This document shows positions 3,002 through 16,580 of a stretch of 45,106 nucleotides of DNA, piece by piece. The position numbers were made by a program, and so were the translations under genes. Origin of the DNA: an uncultured Bacteroidaceae bacterium (GTDB lineage Bacteria > Bacteroidota > Bacteroidia > Bacteroidales > GCA-2748055); assembly GCA_964583445.1 (NCBI GenBank), contig CAZOXI010000001.1, positions 1 to 45,106 on the forward strand, written 5' to 3'. The notes beneath the pieces are model-generated. The model did not search any database, was not told where the DNA came from, and saw nothing but the letters and a program-made list of their open reading frames with translations. The number at the start of each line of letters is the position of its first letter. Position 1 is the first letter of the stretch.

Positions 3002-3112
3002 ATTCAATAACAGGGGACGAACACTATTCAGTAACAGGAGCAAACGCTATTCAATAACGGAGCAAACGCTATTCATTAACGGGGCAAGCGTTATTCAATA
3101 ACAGGAGCGAGG
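3002..3112. repeat. tandem array of five 22-24-bp units (ATTCAATAACAGGRGCRAACGCT-like)
   Basis: Units read directly at 3002-3025, 3026-3048, 3049-3070, 3071-3092 and 3093-3112. The last unit encodes the C-terminus and stop of the DUF302 gene (APVIE*). Confidence 0.9.
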
Positions 3113-10357: not shown

Positions 10358-10936
10358 ATGAAGAGCTTTTCAGATGAAGATATCATACTTGGCCTTAGAA
10401 AGCGGGACAACCAGGTGATCCAGTTCATCTACAAAAATGATTTCGGTAAGATAAGTGCGTTGATCACCAACAACAACGGATCTGATGATGATTCAGAGGA
10501 TGTCTTCCAGGAGGCGTTGATCATTATTTTCAAGCGATTACGTGAAGAGCCCGATTTTGAACTCACCAGTACCTTCAGTACCTATTTATATTCGGTTGCC
10601 CGCTTGATCTGGCTGAAGAAGCTGCGTGATACGAAGAAGATGGAGGTCACCGAGCTGAAGCGGGAGATGGAGGATTACATTGAATTCGAAGAGCCTCCTC
10701 CTGTCGCAGACAAGGACTTGCGCCTGGCGGTATACCAGCGTAACCTGAAGCTGATCCCCGAAGATTGTCAGAAAATCCTCACCTTAACGGCCAGGGATGT
10801 TGCCGCAAAGGATATTGCGGAGAAGCTGGGTTTCAGGAGTGATTCGTATGTGCGCAAGAGAAGACATTTCTGCAAAGAGTTTCTCGTGAACAGAATCAAG
10901 GAAGACAAGGAGTACCAGGCGTTGATTGAAGATTGA
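10358..10936 (+). CDS. RNA polymerase sigma-70 family factor, ECF-like
   Basis: 192 aa. Region 2-like DSEDVFQEALIIIFKRL...TYLYSVARLIWLKKLR and region 4 HTH (CQKILTLTARDVAAKDIAEKLGFRSDSYVRKRRHFC). Confidence 0.8.
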   Translation: MKSFSDEDIILGLRKRDNQVIQFIYKNDFGKISALITNNNGSDDDSEDVFQEALIIIFKRLREEPDFELTSTFSTYLYSVARLIWLKKLRDTKKMEVTELKREMEDYIEFEEPPPVADKDLRLAVYQRNLKLIPEDCQKILTLTARDVAAKDIAEKLGFRSDSYVRKRRHFCKEFLVNRIKEDKEYQALIED

Positions 10937-10974: not shown

Positions 10975-13821
10975 TTACTTTCTTTTTACCAGGGCTTTCC
11001 TGATTTGTTTCCTGTAGATCACTCCTAAAACAATAATTGTAAATAACACCAGGATCAGCACCAGGTAGGATGATGCTGAGGTGGTATAGAGGGGTGTGTT
11101 ATCGCCCACCATCAGGAATGCAGACCAGAAGTAGGGATTTGCTTTCAGGTTGTCCGACGAATTGATATAATCGATCTTCGCCTGTCGCAGTGCTTTTTTC
11201 TTGCTTGATCCCTTCTTCAGGTTTTCATAGAAGTTGCTCATCAGTTCTGCACTGGAGAGGTCTGAAACCTGCCAGAGGGTCATAACGATACTTGGACACC
11301 CGGCATAGATAAATCCGCGTGCCATGCTCATCATTCCTTCCCCTTTTTGCATTTTTCCAAAGCCGCTGCTGCACGAGCTGAGCACCACCATGTCGGCATT
11401 CAGTGGCAGGTTGTATATTTCATACGTAAACAGGTCATGGTCCTGCGTCGTGTCGCTGAAGTTCCTGGTGAAAGCCAGTTTGGAGTACATCGGATTTTCG
11501 TCATCCATGATCGTATGCATCGCCAGGTGCAGCACCGAGTAATCAGATGCCAGTGCCTTGAAATTTGCTTCTGATGCTGCAGAATCGAGGTAGATATCTG
11601 CCGTCACTGTGTTAGAGATGTTCTTCACCTCTTCTTCTGCACCCGGCAGTGGCATCAGGAAATCGCGTTCTGACTGTCGGTTCCAGATGGATTGCAGCTC
11701 TTCATCCAGCAGGTTCTGATATTCGGGAGCGAATGCAAGCACTTTGTTATTGGGGGATTTGGTCCGGATCCGCTCGCTGAACAGCAGGGTAGAGGAGTAG
11801 GAGTACCCCACTGAAAGGTCGTATATGAGATAGGGCAGGTTCCTGTAATTGGGGCGGGTATCGTCGAAATCGCTGCTTGTCAGAAATGATTCAAAGGGCA
11901 GGTACATGATTGCGCCGTCGGGCACAAAGGTGATCTCCCGGCTATCCGTCACCTCCAGCACCGGTGCCACCAGGATATCGTAGAAGTATTTGGCCAGTGC
12001 CGTGTAGTTTTGAAAGGTTTGGTGCACATCATTGCTGAAATCCTGGTTCTGCAGCAGCGAGAAGTAGTCGAAGCACAGTTGAGGAAAAAGTGAATCTACA
12101 GGCTCCGTAAGGACTTCGATGTTCTCTTTATCGATCACAAATGTCGTAAGAATGGAATCTGACAGGACGTACTCGACGAGGCATTCTTTGTGATTTAAAT
12201 GATCCTGTATCTGTTTCGGTGCAATAAAGTCTTGGCTATATTTTAAATTAAAATAGTTTGGAAAATTATTTTCAAGAGAATCTAATAACAAATTGTATCT
12301 ATTCTTTATTTTTAAATAGGATTGATTAAAACTTGCAATAATTTTTTCGTTTGGATTTTCTTCGGCTCTTTCTTTATAAATTAATTCAGATAGGTGATTT
12401 AATTCCTTTTTTAATGAGTCTTCAAGAGTTTTTAAATTATTGGGTAGATCAGAAAATTTTATTGCCTCACCACTTTTAATTTCAGAATATAATGAAAAAG
12501 CTTTCATGTTTTCTGCATACAAAAAGGCTTTGAATAAATATTTTACATCCTCAGTTGTTTTATATAATCTAACAGCTACATCAATAGCTTCGTGAATTAT
12601 CGATATACTGGTACTAGATTCAATAAATATACTTTCTTCATTGCGCATATGAAGTCTAAAGACCATTAAATACTCAATGCTTTTTGAAAAATTGTTTAGG
12701 GATTCAATTAAATCATCTAGATTGTTGTTTTGTGCATATAATTTTAGAGAAGCGTTACCGTAAAGTCTATGATAGTCGATAATTGTTCTATTAAAAGATT
12801 GTTCATTTAAAATGTTTTGGGCAGGATCTGAATTTTCAATGTTAAACTCCAAATTACTAAATCCATCAGATAACCAATCTATACAGCTTATATAGTCATT
12901 CTTCAAATAGTGTATTTGTCCAATTAAAAGGTAAGTCTGATATAGTTTTTCAAAATGAGTAGTTTTGCCGCTTTCCTTGTATTTAATATTCTCTAATAAA
13001 TAAGCAAGAGCTCTGTTAAGATCTCCTAATTTTGTATAAATAGAGGCTGCTCTAAAATTATAAATCAACAAATACTTATACTTACTTTTGAGATTTTTAT
13101 CATAGATTTCCTTTGCTAATCTAGTTTGGTCTAAAGCTTTCAAGTAATAATATTCATCTTCTGAATAATCACCTTTATTTTGATAAGCTTCAGCTAAAAA
13201 CATATGCTTATTGAACAGAAGGTCATTAACTAGTTCTCTTTGTTCTTGATTAAGATTATTATCCTTTATATCTAGACTGCTCAAGATATCAATTGCTTCA
13301 TCATTTCTGTTTTGCTCAACTAAAATATTTCCTATATTGACATAAACCTGCGCGTATTGATATTTATCTGTAGTCTGTTTATTTTCAAAAAATTCTAAAC
13401 AATATCTATAGTAAAGTTCTGCTTCTTTATAGTCTGAGTAATTAAAATAGATGTTTGCCTTTGTATTATAGATATAACCCAAATAAGGAGAGTTCGGATT
13501 GTTTAAGATAAAATATTTCTCAGCTAAATTTAGATGATGTAAAGCCTTTTTGTAGTTATTTTTGTTTCTATATACGACTCCTAAATTAGCATTTGTTATT
13601 ACTGTATTTTCATCATTAACACCATAATAAGCTTTTTGATACTGTAATATCTTATTATAGTAGTACTCGGCACTATCATATTGTCCAGCATTATAGAATT
13701 TAAAAGCTAGTGTATCATAACTCTTAATCGTTCTGCTTCTAAAGATTGAATCCTGATTCTGTGCATTAGAGTTAATACAGAGAAATGATGTCAGTACTAA
13801 TATAGATAATACTTTTTCCAT
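10975..13821 (-). CDS. TPR-repeat / CHAT (caspase-like) domain protein with signal peptide and C-terminal TM anchor
   Basis: 948 aa. Signal peptide MEKVLSILVLTSFLCINSNAQ, then about 540 aa of Y/N/K-rich TPR-like repeats. The CHAT domain has an intact His (LHLAMHT) and Cys (VVLSSCSSG) dyad. C-terminal helix YLVLILVLFTIIVLGVIY followed by a basic tail. Confidence 0.9.
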   Translation of the reverse strand: MEKVLSILVLTSFLCINSNAQNQDSIFRSRTIKSYDTLAFKFYNAGQYDSAEYYYNKILQYQKAYYGVNDENTVITNANLGVVYRNKNNYKKALHHLNLAEKYFILNNPNSPYLGYIYNTKANIYFNYSDYKEAELYYRYCLEFFENKQTTDKYQYAQVYVNIGNILVEQNRNDEAIDILSSLDIKDNNLNQEQRELVNDLLFNKHMFLAEAYQNKGDYSEDEYYYLKALDQTRLAKEIYDKNLKSKYKYLLIYNFRAASIYTKLGDLNRALAYLLENIKYKESGKTTHFEKLYQTYLLIGQIHYLKNDYISCIDWLSDGFSNLEFNIENSDPAQNILNEQSFNRTIIDYHRLYGNASLKLYAQNNNLDDLIESLNNFSKSIEYLMVFRLHMRNEESIFIESSTSISIIHEAIDVAVRLYKTTEDVKYLFKAFLYAENMKAFSLYSEIKSGEAIKFSDLPNNLKTLEDSLKKELNHLSELIYKERAEENPNEKIIASFNQSYLKIKNRYNLLLDSLENNFPNYFNLKYSQDFIAPKQIQDHLNHKECLVEYVLSDSILTTFVIDKENIEVLTEPVDSLFPQLCFDYFSLLQNQDFSNDVHQTFQNYTALAKYFYDILVAPVLEVTDSREITFVPDGAIMYLPFESFLTSSDFDDTRPNYRNLPYLIYDLSVGYSYSSTLLFSERIRTKSPNNKVLAFAPEYQNLLDEELQSIWNRQSERDFLMPLPGAEEEVKNISNTVTADIYLDSAASEANFKALASDYSVLHLAMHTIMDDENPMYSKLAFTRNFSDTTQDHDLFTYEIYNLPLNADMVVLSSCSSGFGKMQKGEGMMSMARGFIYAGCPSIVMTLWQVSDLSSAELMSNFYENLKKGSSKKKALRQAKIDYINSSDNLKANPYFWSAFLMVGDNTPLYTTSASSYLVLILVLFTIIVLGVIYRKQIRKALVKRK

Positions 13822-14025
13822 CTATAAAATATTCAAGCTGGTATAAACATTGCAGCAAGGTAATAGAAAATTGTTATTTTTTCAAAAAATTAAATACCAC
13901 ATAGTCAATGAGTTATAAAATTAATTTCACTTTTTTTTATTTTTTTGGGTAACGTTTTCTGGTGATTTGGAATAAAGGGTTGAACGATCAACAAAACAAG
14001 TATTAACCCTAATTGAAAAAACGTC

Positions 14026-14142
14026 ATGAAAACTTCAAAAACAAACATCGAGAATTTTGCAATTGATGCAATGACCCAGGAAGAAATGAATTTTTTAACA
14101 GGTGGTGGAGAACCTATTGATATGATTATTCCTCCCAGGTAG
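14026..14142 (+). CDS. 38-aa double-glycine-leader peptide precursor (not in the ORF track)
   Basis: MKTSKTNIENFAIDAMTQEEMNFLTGG/GEPIDMIIPPR. Gly at -1/-2, hydrophobic residues at -4, -7, -12 and -15, and Glu at -8 fit the GG-leader consensus. ATG start, TAG stop. Confidence 0.55.
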   Translation: MKTSKTNIENFAIDAMTQEEMNFLTGGGEPIDMIIPPR

Positions 14143-14204
14143 TAAAAAATTCCAGAAGCTGTTTATAAATTGATTCAGCAAATTGAGATAATACTTCGAT
14201 ATTA

Positions 14205-14860
14205 CTCAACGGAAACTATCCAGTCACGGAAACGTCCGGGCTGTAGCAAACAAGGAAACAAGTACCGGTGGCATACGGTGTGTGCGGAGCCGGATGACAT
14301 ACACTCAGTCATGAGATGAAGCAGACCGCTGCTATTCAAAGGTGGAGTCGAACGAGCCGGACCAGGAAACGAACTGGTAAGGTAGCATTTCGGAACACCC
14401 GGGGATACACGGAACTTGCGGAAGATGATCCAGATCATGAAGCTGGGAAGGAACGCGACCAGGCATTGAAGCGTGCCGGAAGTGCGAAGCTCAGGAGGAG
14501 CATGTGGACAGGAAAATCAGGATGACCAACAAATGGAACCTGTATACCCCCCTGGCACACAACCCTCTGAAAGTGCCGCGAATAAATGCACGCAGGGATC
14601 CATACAATGGAGCCAGAGATGCCCGATAGCGCAAAGCTAAGAAAGAGCAGCGAACGGGAGCAGTCCGGGGAATCAGAAAATGAAACTGACGGATGCCCGA
14701 AGATCGCAACGCTCAGTCAACGCTGAGAATCTGGCAGAAAAGAGACGGAACATAAGCTCAGACTTCTGAATACCATACCGTTACCGGGAGAGATCCAGGT
14801 AAACCGATGTAGGATGAACAGCGAGCTGATCATTGACAACCTATTATGAGAGAATATTTA
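14205..14860 (+). ncRNA. candidate long noncoding/leader RNA: ORF-poor, purine-rich, GGA/GGAAC-dense block
   Basis: No ORF longer than 78 aa on either strand, and none looks protein-like. I counted 29 GGA trinucleotides and 9 GGAA(A)C motifs, all on the plus strand. G+C is about 57% in a sampled 60-nt line, against about 20% in the adjacent block. Several short hairpins are present, e.g. ATGAT-ccag-ATCAT and CTCAG-tcaacg-CTGAG. Confidence 0.3.
14211..14236 (+). promoter_or_regulatory. candidate ECF-type promoter GGAAAC-N16-CGTC
   Basis: GGAAAC at 14211-14216, a 16-nt spacer, then CGTC at 14233-14236. It sits at the left edge of the purine-rich block, upstream of the anti-sigma-like gene. Confidence 0.3.
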
Positions 14861-14882
14861 TGAAAAACCGATACATATAGTT

Positions 14883-15665
14883 ATGAAACGAGACAGGCAC
14901 ATTATCCAGAAGTACCTCGATCATGACCTATCAGACAAGGACATGAAGAGGTTCGAAGCGGATCTTGAAAGCAGTCCCGAGCTTCAGGCAGACCTGGGAT
15001 TACACCAGGAGATTGATGAAGCACTGGCCGATACAGAAGTATTGAGCTTTAGGGATCAGCTGACGGATCTGCGGAAAGAGACCAAGAAGGACGGAAAGAA
15101 TGCGAAAGCACCGATCCGTTTCAACAAGCCCTGGCATTATGCTGCATCAGCAGCCATTGCCCTGATCCTGGCCATCGGCCTTGCTTCAGTACTTGACAGA
15201 CCACTGAGCAATAAGGATTTGCTTAAAAAGTATTACAAACCTTACGAGGTGGCACTGATGAACAGGTCGCTCAACGAAAATTTGACGACAGCGGAAAACA
15301 TGATGGCAGAGACCTACCTCACTAAGGCCAGCCTTTTCTACCAGGAAGGGGATTTCAAAAATGCCATCGAGCACTTTGAGCTGTTCCTCGAGAACCAGCC
15401 GAACGATGCCGGCGCACAACTTTACCTCGGTATCTCTTTTTACGAAGAGGACAGGTATCACGATGCAGAAGCATCACTGACCAAAGTGGTCGATCACCAG
15501 GACAACCTATATGTCGATAAGGCAGAATGGTACCTGGGACTCTGTTACCTGGCACTGAACGAGAATGACCTCGCACGCAGAAAGTTTGCAGGACTCGCAT
15601 CAGGGAACAGTGACAAGGCTGAAGAAGCGAAGCAGTTATTGCGCAAGATCAAGGTGCGTGATTAA
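14883..15665 (+). CDS. anti-sigma-factor-like single-pass membrane protein with extracytoplasmic TPR domain
   Basis: The N-terminus resembles anti-sigma domains (IQKYLDHDLSDKDMKRFEADLESSPELQADL). One TM helix (AASAAIALILAIGLASVL), then TPR repeats (YQEGDFKNAIEHFELFLENQPNDAGAQLYLGISFYEEDRYHDA). Confidence 0.7.
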   Translation: MKRDRHIIQKYLDHDLSDKDMKRFEADLESSPELQADLGLHQEIDEALADTEVLSFRDQLTDLRKETKKDGKNAKAPIRFNKPWHYAASAAIALILAIGLASVLDRPLSNKDLLKKYYKPYEVALMNRSLNENLTTAENMMAETYLTKASLFYQEGDFKNAIEHFELFLENQPNDAGAQLYLGISFYEEDRYHDAEASLTKVVDHQDNLYVDKAEWYLGLCYLALNENDLARRKFAGLASGNSDKAEEAKQLLRKIKVRD

Positions 15666-15725: not shown

Positions 15726-16580
15726 ATGGACGAAAACCCAACATACGAGGAGTTGATGGCTGCAAACCGTAAGCTTAGGGATAAGGTGGATTGGCTGGAA
15801 GGCGTCTACCACACTCACCGCGATGCCGGGCTGCAGGTCAGATCAAGGTTCCTGTCCAATATCACACACGAGATCAGGACACCCATGAACGCGATCCTCG
15901 GGTTTTCAGACCTGCTGACAAACAGTTCTCTTACAGACAGCGAGCGGGAGGAATATATTGAGTACATCTCCCACAACAGTAAAACGCTCTTAAAAATAAT
16001 GGATAACATCATCGACCTGACACTCCTCGAGACTGATAATCTCGAAATGAAAAAGGAGGAGGTCTTCGCCGAAGACCTGTTCAGGGAGATCTACGAGTTC
16101 TATAACTCGTAGGTCGTCAGGGGGATGAGTTACAGGGTGGCGCTTCTGATGACGACACCCACCAGGTACAGACGGATCACAGTCGACGCTGATGGCTACA
16201 GGCTGCACAGGATCCTCGACAACCTGGTCAACAACGCGATCTCCCAACAGTCAAAGGGGGTGGTCGAAATGAAGATGGATATCAAGGATGAGAAAAAAGT
16301 CTTTTTTACCATCGTCAGCGAGAGAAATGAGCTGCTCGAAGAAAGAGCCCAAATGATCTTTGAAAATAATGGTGACACGGATGACTGGCACAATCACCTC
16401 GATGCCACGGGCCTGGCCTACAAGCTGGCACGTGACCTGGCAAAAGCCATGGGTGGTTCTGTCAGACTGGTGCAGGTAGACGAGAAAAGAATCGGCGTGT
16501 GCATGGAACTACCGGTAAAGAAAATCGGTATTGCCCATAAGAAAGACACCCGAAAGAAGATATCCACGCTGTTGAATTAA
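15726..16580 (+). pseudogene. sensor-less histidine kinase interrupted by an in-frame TAG (16110-16112), with a degenerate ATP-binding domain
   Basis: ORFs 15726-16112 and 16125-16580 share one frame. The first carries a coiled-coil and an H-box (FLSNITHEIRTPMNAILGFSDLL). The second carries an N-box (HRILDNLVNNAI) but no DxGxG G1 box. Confidence 0.7.

Follow-up and report, generated by a model that had tools for sequence, protein, structure and literature searches.

An AT-rich, hypervariable N-terminal half in a TPR-CHAT gene of an uncultured Bacteroidaceae bacterium, probably an old sensor segment of a module widespread in Bacteroidia

The 45,106-nucleotide (nt) stretch of DNA analysed here (hereafter the window; uncultured Bacteroidaceae bacterium, GCA_964583445.1, contig CAZOXI010000001.1, positions 1-45,106) carries an intact gene for a protein in which an N-terminal TPR solenoid is joined to a C-terminal CHAT protease domain. 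This gene is part of a conserved module, widespread in Bacteroidia, that consists of a sigma factor of the extracytoplasmic function (ECF) type, a TPR-containing anti-sigma protein, the TPR-CHAT protein and a peptide with a putative double-glycine (GG) leader. The N-terminal half of the gene lies in an AT-rich block that also takes in the divergent promoter region and the peptide gene upstream of it. The features concerned are listed below (GC3, G+C content at third codon positions; ORF, open reading frame; aa, amino acids).

10975..13821, minus strand: intact 948-aa TPR-CHAT gene (ORF, Pfam); its TPR/all-alpha half, which starts with a signal-peptide-like segment, is followed by a caspase-like CHAT half and, at the C-terminus, a hydrophobic helix
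12184..13821, minus strand: TPR/all-alpha hypervariable half, codons 1-546 (the N half); GC3 0.22, G+C at four-fold sites 0.18
10975..12183, minus strand: CHAT half with the predicted C-terminal anchor, codons 547-948 plus stop (the C half); conserved, with genome-typical composition, GC3 0.63
12185..14204, no strand: AT-rich block, 27.4% G+C against 49.0% around it (change-point fit, composition profiles)
13822..14025, no strand: divergent promoter region of 204 nt between the TPR-CHAT and peptide genes; G+C 0.26
13947..13976, plus strand: conserved ECF-type promoter-like motif GGGTAACGTTT-N11-GGAATAAA; the peptide start lies 50 nt downstream
14026..14142, plus strand: 38-aa peptide gene with a putative double-glycine leader, MKTSKTNIENFAIDAMTQEEMNFLTGGG / EPIDMIIPPR; G+C 0.35, GC3 0.29

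The composition step is real and far exceeds the variation found within the window. Block borders were placed by a two-change-point likelihood fit on G+C, which returned 12185-14204 (G+C 0.274 inside and 0.490 outside, log-likelihood gain 115), nearly identical to the 12200-14205 of an earlier reading of this DNA (the original prediction). The supported ranges are 12180-12240 for the left border and 14194-14224 for the right one. In 200-nt windows G+C is 0.44-0.53 up to about position 12100, 0.24-0.30 at 12200-14100 and 0.52-0.54 from 14200 onwards, and no other 500-nt window anywhere in the 45 kb falls under 0.38. The block comprises codons 1-546 of the TPR-CHAT gene, the whole 204-nt promoter region and the peptide gene with its 38 codons. 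A direct repeat of 31 nt (77%; 12373-12403 in the TPR half and 14162-14192 at the right block edge) was considered as a recombination site and rejected, since such a match is expected by chance in DNA this AT-rich.

The profile along the TPR-CHAT gene is strongly non-uniform. GC3 in 40-codon windows stays at 0.12-0.33 through codon 540 and at 0.48-0.78 from codon 580, amounting to 0.223 for the N half and 0.629 for the C half (chi-square 158, p=3e-36), while the other 33 long ORFs of the window range from 0.44 to 0.68 and their lowest 300-codon window reaches 0.43. Four-fold-site G+C is 0.66 in the C half but 0.18 in the N half, where G/C-ending codons are also less frequent for every one of the 18 amino acids that could be tested. 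Leucine illustrates the shift (TTA33/TTG9/CTG2 in the N half, CTG33/TTA2 in the C half), in agreement with the switch from TTA/TTG to CTG that the original prediction had described. The N half is also rich in N, K, Y and I, with a FYMINK fraction of 0.43 versus 0.31 in the C half. However, since four-fold sites and every synonymous family are shifted, amino-acid composition alone cannot explain the step, as had been suspected.

At the protein level, Pfam CHAT (PF12770) matches residues 609-907 with 185.9 bits (cut-off 24, E=1.5e-54) over profile positions 3-289 of 289, and TPR_12 (1.1e-17) and related families cover residues 38-284. The protein thus has the TPR-CHAT architecture of the separase, Csx29 and DdvA type, an N-terminal TPR/alpha-solenoid followed by a C-terminal CHAT domain in a single chain. 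Residues H769 (LHLAMHT) and C817 (VVLSSCSSG) are invariant in 15 aligned homologues and form a predicted His-Cys dyad, assigned by motif and not by structure. An AlphaFold model built on 15 homologues is all-alpha to residue 541 and shows beta strands from residue 546, so that the composition breakpoint is, in the model, the junction between solenoid and protease; the coincidence of the left breakpoint with a domain junction inside one intact ORF was correctly foreseen. The modelled CHAT half is too poor for use (pLDDT <50 for residues 655-858). Foldseek matched TPR solenoids and, low in its list, separase (9hn4_B, over 731 columns); otherwise this search and a sequence-profile search of the PDB returned only generic TPR proteins. 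The C-terminus reads as a hydrophobic helix followed by basic residues, and the protein is predicted to be exported and membrane-anchored. In close pairs dN/dS is 0.05-0.15 in both halves, indicating purifying selection. The locus matches no defence-system model in PADLOC.

The window was compared with homologous TPR-CHAT loci in other genomes and contigs (labelled L001-L124), 80 of them from a scan of one genome per species and 43 from a metagenome scan. A large contrast between the two halves of the gene recurs in L001-L005, L009, L011, L013, L014, L018, L023, L048, L056 and L081, and a smaller one in L006, L007 and L010. These loci belong to different Bacteroidales species represented by metagenome-assembled genomes (MAGs), with flank G+C of 0.39-0.52, and all combine an N-half GC3 of 0.20-0.34 with a CHAT GC3 of 0.46-0.68. 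In the clearest cases (L001, L003, L004, L005, L009, L013, L018, L023, L048 and L081) the fitted blocks reach from 180-390 nt upstream of the ORF to about codon 520-570. A mosaic with conserved borders is common to some 20 orthologous loci of different species, which speaks against the foreign cassette that the original prediction had proposed.

The histories of the two halves point the same way. Bootstrapped neighbour-joining trees were built separately for each half, and within the window's clade both give ((((WIN,L081),L001),L004),(L002,L003)),L005, where WIN is the window; the group (WIN,L081,L001) has bootstrap values of 98% and 100% in the two trees. The closest relative, the 95%-identical L081, matches the window at 91-97% of nucleotides across flanks, block and CHAT half alike, with a four-fold-site divergence of 0.18 in the N half versus 0.27 in the C half, and thus no excess divergence where a recent replacement had been supposed. 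Among 5.8 billion proteins, the best matches of the N half are the same orthologues (95%, then 50% and lower), and low-GC genera are at most 25% identical to it. Searches with the N half found no match in a phage collection and only weak TPR matches on Acaryochloris plasmids in a plasmid collection, so that no donor of low G+C, phage or plasmid type emerged. A tRNA scan of the window found none, the L081 gene list for the syntenic region contains no integrase or transposase, and a search for direct or inverted repeats flanking the block as cassette borders gave only short, chance-level AT-rich matches. Of the marks of a recent genomic island, atypical composition is the only one present, and the block is found in all orthologues; a recent foreign insertion into this genome is not supported. 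Moreover, synonymous sites are saturated among the contrast-bearing members of the clade, so the AT-rich state must be actively maintained and is not simply residual from the past.

What does distinguish the N half, apart from its composition, is its variability. Between the window and L001, identity is 54% in the N half and 86% in CHAT, with 93% for the sigma factor, 90% for the anti-sigma protein and 89% for the kinase encoded nearby. The corresponding nucleotide identities are 80-93% in the flanks, 81-85% in the CHAT half and 51-70% in the AT-rich coding part, and identity recovers at +1600, the same point as G+C. The N half is the fastest-evolving part of the neighbourhood in every comparison, and the expected pattern of a hypervariable TPR half beside a conserved CHAT half was borne out. 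Its excess is nevertheless not constant: the N/C ratio of synonymous divergence is about 1 or lower for WIN-L081, L002-L003 and L016-L019, whereas for WIN-L001 and L016-L017 the N four-fold sites are saturated and the C half stands at 0.75-0.9. Such a ratio indicates discrete allele differences and not a steadily faster clock. (NG86 dS for WIN-L001 was distrusted because of the extreme composition, and four-fold-site comparisons scaled to composition-specific saturation were used instead.)

Recombination breakpoints inside the gene are visible in other lineages. L091 and L090 differ strongly up to +1184 nt (44-72% identity) but agree at 98-100% over the rest of the locus; in amino acids their C halves are 99% identical and residues 22-350 only 49%. 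Conversely, L108 and L101 are 97-100% identical up to +1110 and 72-91% identical thereafter, with unrelated DNA downstream of the gene. L017 joins L016/L019 with 100% support in the C tree and 10% in the N tree, and species pairs of the cultured genera Labilibaculum and Marinifilum show identities of 95-98% in the C half and 72-76% in residues 22-350. A polymorphic, recombining sensor part is thus attached to a conserved catalytic part, with intragenic breakpoints at about +1150 nt, as in pherotype loci. The original prediction had treated the TPR module as a separately evolving unit; that part of it stands, with a hypervariable and recombining TPR segment set against a conserved CHAT half, while the recent and foreign arrival of the module does not.

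The same segment leaves a trace in assemblies. Of the metagenome contigs (L082-L124), 18 of 32 break off within the N half, compared with 11 of 43 in the same span downstream of the gene, an excess that strain-level variation and low coverage of AT-rich DNA could both produce. Most database entries of the TPR-CHAT family are truncated 'CHAT domain proteins' of 380-700 aa, as follows from assemblies breaking inside the N half, and the AT-rich, hypervariable nature of this half explains why assemblies and gene callers yield such entries so frequently. In L022, L027, L029, L034 and L041, which lie mid-contig on large MFD MAG contigs, the N half is interrupted and the CHAT ORF measures only 430-610 aa; these are either frameshift errors in AT-rich homopolymers or real pseudogenes.

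The low G+C content follows the variable segment. In the window's clade, low GC3 and low identity alike reach as far as residue 550 or so; in clade B (L010-L023 and relatives) the two stop at about residue 350-400, and in L056 the GC3 step lies at about residue 400-450. A survey of 76 full-length genes, in which residues 22-350 were compared with the CHAT half, showed lower GC3 in the N-terminal segment in 35 of the 37 hosts with flank G+C of at least 0.40 (medians 0.31 versus 0.52) and also in 34 of the 39 lower-GC hosts (medians 0.26 versus 0.33). CHAT-half GC3 correlates closely with host G+C (rho 0.91), N-segment GC3 more weakly (0.49). AT enrichment thus belongs to the variable segment as such, regardless of host, and its occurrence across host types argues against import from low-GC organisms as its main cause.

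The peptide gene shares the AT-rich block but does not behave like the TPR half. A divergently oriented GG-leader peptide gene lies upstream of the TPR-CHAT gene in all 19 of the nearest orthologous loci that were inspected, as well as in numerous loci further away, those of Marinifilum, Labilibaculum, Prolixibacter and Sunxiuqinia among them. The window's peptide scores 21.2 bits against the TIGR04149 leader model, below the cut-off of 25, with the motif ...EEMNFLTGGG present; a Marinifilum homologue reaches 19.2 bits with TIGR01847 (cut-off 15.7). No C39-peptidase exporter was found in the window or in the L081 annotation. In Marinifilum and Labilibaculum (L040, L051, L055, L057, L060, L068), 3-5 tandem, near-identical peptide genes occupy the stretch some 100-900 nt upstream of TPR-CHAT, with the outermost copy frequently diverged from the others. 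The peptide core motif [DE]-x-[LMIV]-[LIV]-x-P-P is kept in the window's clade and in clade B.

Had ligand and receptor been swapped together, as was originally proposed, the peptide should track the TPR allele. Instead, where the TPR half is scrambled the peptide gene keeps a flank-like identity (80-85% for WIN-L001, 93-96% for L070-L073, and likewise in L016-L017), and the same core EPIDMIIPP occurs in the window, L002 and L003 despite just 50% identity between their TPR halves. The peptide cores of L107 and L108 are almost alike at 59% identity in N1 (residues 22-350), and their TPR alleles are the most divergent of their group, while L106 and L108 have different cores despite 77% N1 identity. 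Only in a single case, L107/L108, does a divergent tract visibly reach the peptide gene (84-93% in the peptide region versus 98-100% further upstream). The mature peptide does not track the TPR allele, so the co-variation expected of pherotype loci and of a co-diversifying ligand/receptor pair is lacking. The peptide could still be what the TPR part binds, but its failure to co-vary argues for a different target of the variable surface.

The promoter region, on the other hand, is conserved. Aligned intergenic regions of 19 orthologous loci contain conserved blocks, in which a GGGTAACGTTT-N11-GGAAT(AAA) element (to GGAAT, 13947-13973 in the window) is nearly invariant (e.g. L001 5847-5871, L016 5669-5693) though the TPR halves of these orthologues are only about 26% identical. 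The exact GGGTAACGTTT has a single occurrence in the window. In relaxed form (GTAACG-N12-18-GGAAT) the element occurs exactly once per locus in 38 loci, and wherever the peptide gene was mapped (19 loci), the element sits just upstream and on the same strand. The element looks like the target of the module's own ECF sigma factor.

Taken together, the AT-rich block is probably the old, hypervariable sensor segment of a conserved, membrane-anchored TPR-CHAT protease, along with the promoter region and the adjacent peptide gene; the segment would be exchanged by recombination and be AT-rich through GC-favouring forces being ineffective in it. The N-terminal TPR segment would exist as many deeply diverged alleles that homologous recombination now and then passes between related lineages, its breakpoints lying in conserved flanks, while the CHAT half and the neighbouring genes would evolve slowly and vertically. 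Bacterial mutation is AT-biased. Alleles this diverged presumably cannot form heteroduplexes internally and would be exchanged through their flanks, so that GC-biased gene conversion and/or weak codon selection, the latter further weakened by linkage to sites under diversifying selection, may be ineffective within them and leave the segment near its AT-biased mutational equilibrium. Equal synonymous divergence in close pairs argues against a difference in mutation rate between the halves, which would then differ in fixation bias. A correlation between GC3 and recombination is established for bacteria (Lassalle et al. 2015, PMC4450053).

Several observations weigh against this interpretation. 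No direct recombination event was seen in the window's own lineage, where there is only the excess divergence from L001, and the signalling role considered below is a proposal drawn from domain content and gene order. At four-fold sites of the N half G+C is 0.18, much lower than in the non-ORF DNA of the window (0.42), so that simple relaxation works only on the assumption that this GC-favouring force also keeps up the G+C of intergenic DNA. The effect is furthermore not obligatory, as the mid-GC lineages L016/L019, L078 and L064/L067 have N segments of normal GC3. The last two points leave selection for AT-richness as a live, if unlikely, rival. Such selection would act at the level of DNA or RNA, through a tract for nucleoid-associated silencers over the divergent promoters or through AT-ending rare codons or an unstable mRNA that throttle a potentially harmful protease. 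It would suit the very low four-fold-site value, the AT-richness of the peptide gene and promoter, which are conserved and not hypervariable, and the persistence of the feature across many species. Yet the AT border tracks the border of hypervariability, depends on the clade and does not keep a fixed distance from the promoters, and L016/L019 and L078 manage with a normal N-half GC3 and an intact gene.

Import has been considered in two forms. A recent, joint arrival of the TPR half and the peptide gene as a foreign AT-rich cassette encoding a co-diversifying receptor and ligand, as in the original prediction, would account for a block that spans both genes, and it could draw on the hypervariability and recombination of the TPR half, on the divergent tract of L107/L108 that includes the peptide gene, and on the variation among species of the C-terminal tails and of the residues between GG motif and core. 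It is at odds with the presence of the mosaic in some 20 species, the congruent trees of the window's clade, the allele shared with L081 without excess divergence, a peptide whose identity and core disregard the TPR allele, and the missing repeats, tRNA and integrase; its 'recent' and 'foreign' parts are largely refuted, and as a whole we consider it quite improbable. Alternatively, N cassettes might circulate in a pool consisting mainly of low-GC hosts (most Marinilabiliales have 28-38% G+C) and be replaced in mid-GC hosts faster than they can ameliorate. Transfer of a cassette between backgrounds is indeed seen directly (L101/L108), the N-segment GC3 of mid-GC hosts (0.20-0.34) equals the whole-gene GC3 of low-GC genera, and alleles in similar hosts vary in GC3 (0.27-0.51 in clade B). 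But every mid-GC allele examined has its closest N-half relatives among other mid-GC orthologues, the resemblance of the window's N half to low-GC genomes is as slight as noted above, the trees are congruent across synonymously saturated divergences, and import cannot explain why the N segment lies below the CHAT half in low-GC hosts too. Repeated import is accordingly unlikely. Targeted hypermutation of the sensor half (e.g. deaminase-driven C-to-T changes) would produce diversity and AT bias at once, and divergence and AT enrichment do co-localise at all three codon positions; it is very improbable given that N-half synonymous divergence is not raised in close pairs (WIN-L081, L002-L003, L016-L019), that alleles differ in discrete blocks with sharp breakpoints, that the locus annotation lists neither a reverse transcriptase nor a template repeat or deaminase gene and that there is no strong strand skew. 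Finally, the window resembles a metagenome-type contig and its N half is rich in N, K, Y and I, so chimeric assembly or amino-acid composition alone were weighed as well; the ORF is intact across the junction, the same mosaic recurs in many independent assemblies and the shift affects four-fold sites and all synonymous families, by which an artefact is refuted and left with practically no probability.

The old, exchanged sensor segment thus favoured here belongs to a larger neighbourhood, for which gene content was counted in 65 loci.

10358..10936, plus strand: ECF-type sigma factor, 192 aa, convergent with the TPR-CHAT gene; TIGR02937 match; in 54 of 65 loci
14143..14882, plus strand: ORF-less, purine-rich spacer of 740 nt between the peptide and anti-sigma genes; only its first ~60 nt lie in the AT-rich block
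14883..15665, plus strand: anti-sigma-like protein, 260 aa, with an N-terminal anti-sigma-like segment, one hydrophobic helix and a predicted extracytoplasmic TPR part
15726..16580, plus strand: histidine kinase (HisKA + HATPase_c) with an in-frame TAG at 16110-16112; in 41 of 65 loci

The sigma factor matches TIGR02937 (sigma70-ECF) over residues 39-179 with 45.6 bits (cut-off 42.9) and Pfam Sigma70_r2 with 23.7 bits, slightly under the cut-off of 24. In L010, L013 and L018 its gene lies 1.4-2 kb beyond the CHAT gene and does not follow it directly; in L010 the fitted low-GC block runs on through the extra DNA before the sigma gene, which suggests an inserted segment. The anti-sigma-like protein has Pfam TPR matches and one to NCBIfam anti-sigma NF052375 at 1e-5, below the cut-off of that model, and its gene stands beside the TPR-CHAT gene in 54 of the 65 loci. 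The TAG in the kinase gene splits it into ORFs of 128 and 151 aa; the L081 kinase is intact (284 aa), with no indels between the two, and the TAG is either a nonsense mutation or a sequencing error.

The spacer is composed, on the plus strand, of 34% A, 27% G and 17% T (G+C 0.48). Rfam searches of the window and of 13800-15000, at gathering thresholds and at E<=5, found nothing. The spacer is about 92% identical to its L081 counterpart, less diverged than the four-fold sites of this pair, and aligns poorly with L001; in orthologues the equivalent spacer measures 150-740 nt, most often 150-320 nt. A 194-aa ORF called across the L081 spacer was judged spurious, its translation being of low complexity (rich in S, L, P, F and C) and absent from the window. 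Elsewhere, between two minus-strand genes at 3002-3108, there are 4.7 tandem copies of a 22-23-nt unit (ATTCAATAACAGGAGCAAACGCT; 83% matching), the only such array in the window; it is without spacers and not CRISPR-like.

The content and order of these genes suggest a signalling pathway. The variable TPR part of an extracytoplasmic TPR-CHAT protein would sense or bind a ligand, the CHAT domain would act as a site-1 protease that cleaves the extracytoplasmic domain of the anti-sigma protein, and the sigma factor thus released would drive the peptide promoter. A search of the literature on CHAT proteins in connection with double-glycine peptides, quorum sensing or Bacteroidetes found no description of this module. 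We tentatively raise the possibility, which we hold to be doubtful as a whole, that the module is an undescribed peptide- or ligand-sensing proteolytic pathway of Bacteroidia, that its TPR alleles are ancient, exchanged and under balancing or arms-race selection (for which kin discrimination, or the sensing of phages or competitors, are candidates), and that their AT-richness is the long-lasting mark of an escape from GC-biased gene conversion. If true, the gene would offer a natural within-gene control for what maintains bacterial G+C content. The two halves, transcribed as a single mRNA, are expressed at one level and do not differ in synonymous divergence among close pairs, yet hold very different GC3 equilibria, and the locus is thereby a clean natural test of whether recombination-linked fixation bias or translational selection governs G+C in these genomes. 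Recent horizontal transfer is the usual reading of a G+C jump within a gene. In this case the jump is old, occurs in many species and goes together with hypervariability, and the locus serves as a warning against calling genomic islands from composition.

The nearest characterised analogue is the DdvA-DdvS system of Myxococcus, in which a periplasmic TPR-CHAT part is fused to an anti-sigma factor that spans the membrane, and signal-triggered regulated proteolysis has been proposed, with the CHAT domain as a signal-activated site-1 protease that starts regulated intramembrane proteolysis (PMC11506125). DdvA-like proteins were reported only in Myxococcota and one Comamonas species, and neither a hypervariable TPR part nor a compositional mosaic is reported there (PMC11506125). 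Both systems couple a TPR-CHAT protein with a His-Cys dyad, extracytoplasmic in DdvA and predicted to be so here, genetically to an ECF sigma factor and its anti-sigma factor, and in both the cognate sigma gene is adjacent (10358..10936 here). In DdvA, however, the anti-sigma domain, the transmembrane helix and TPR-CHAT form one polypeptide, whereas the window's TPR-CHAT protein is separate, with its own signal-peptide-like N-terminus, a probable C-terminal anchor and no anti-sigma domain; the anti-sigma factor is a second protein (14883..15665) with a TPR part of its own, and there is an additional GG-leader peptide gene.

Craspase, which combines the type III-E CRISPR effector Cas7-11 with Csx29 as TPR-CHAT protease, Csx30 as the substrate of Csx29 and RpoE as sigma factor (PMC10028731), resembles the proposed pathway in that activation of TPR-CHAT leads to cleavage of a protein controlling an ECF-type sigma factor. 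It differs in being cytoplasmic and RNA-guided, while the window's protein has predicted export and anchor signals; no cas domains were found among the neighbours and no CRISPR array in the window.

Two kinds of polymorphic loci are comparable in their evolution. In pherotype loci such as Bacillus comQXP and Staphylococcus agrBDC, the peptide and its processing enzyme co-vary with the sensor. The likeness lies in a sharp intragenic mosaic, in a polymorphic, recombining sensor next to a conserved catalytic part, and in a small gene alongside for a peptide that is secreted there and putatively so here; the differences are that the peptide core of our module is conserved across TPR alleles and that the output is a protease and not a kinase. 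Rhs and contact-dependent inhibition (CDI) toxin loci join a core of typical G+C to an AT-rich variable tip with a small adjacent gene, so that there, too, a compositional break within one ORF marks a variable, recombining module beside a small gene. In the window, by contrast, the variable part is an N-terminal TPR sensor and not a C-terminal toxin, the small gene encodes a conserved GG-leader peptide and not an immunity protein, and no orphan cassettes were seen. In its logic the module thus resembles DdvA/DdvS and Craspase; what would set it apart is that it is split, exported and coupled to a secreted-type peptide, and that its sensor can be swapped.

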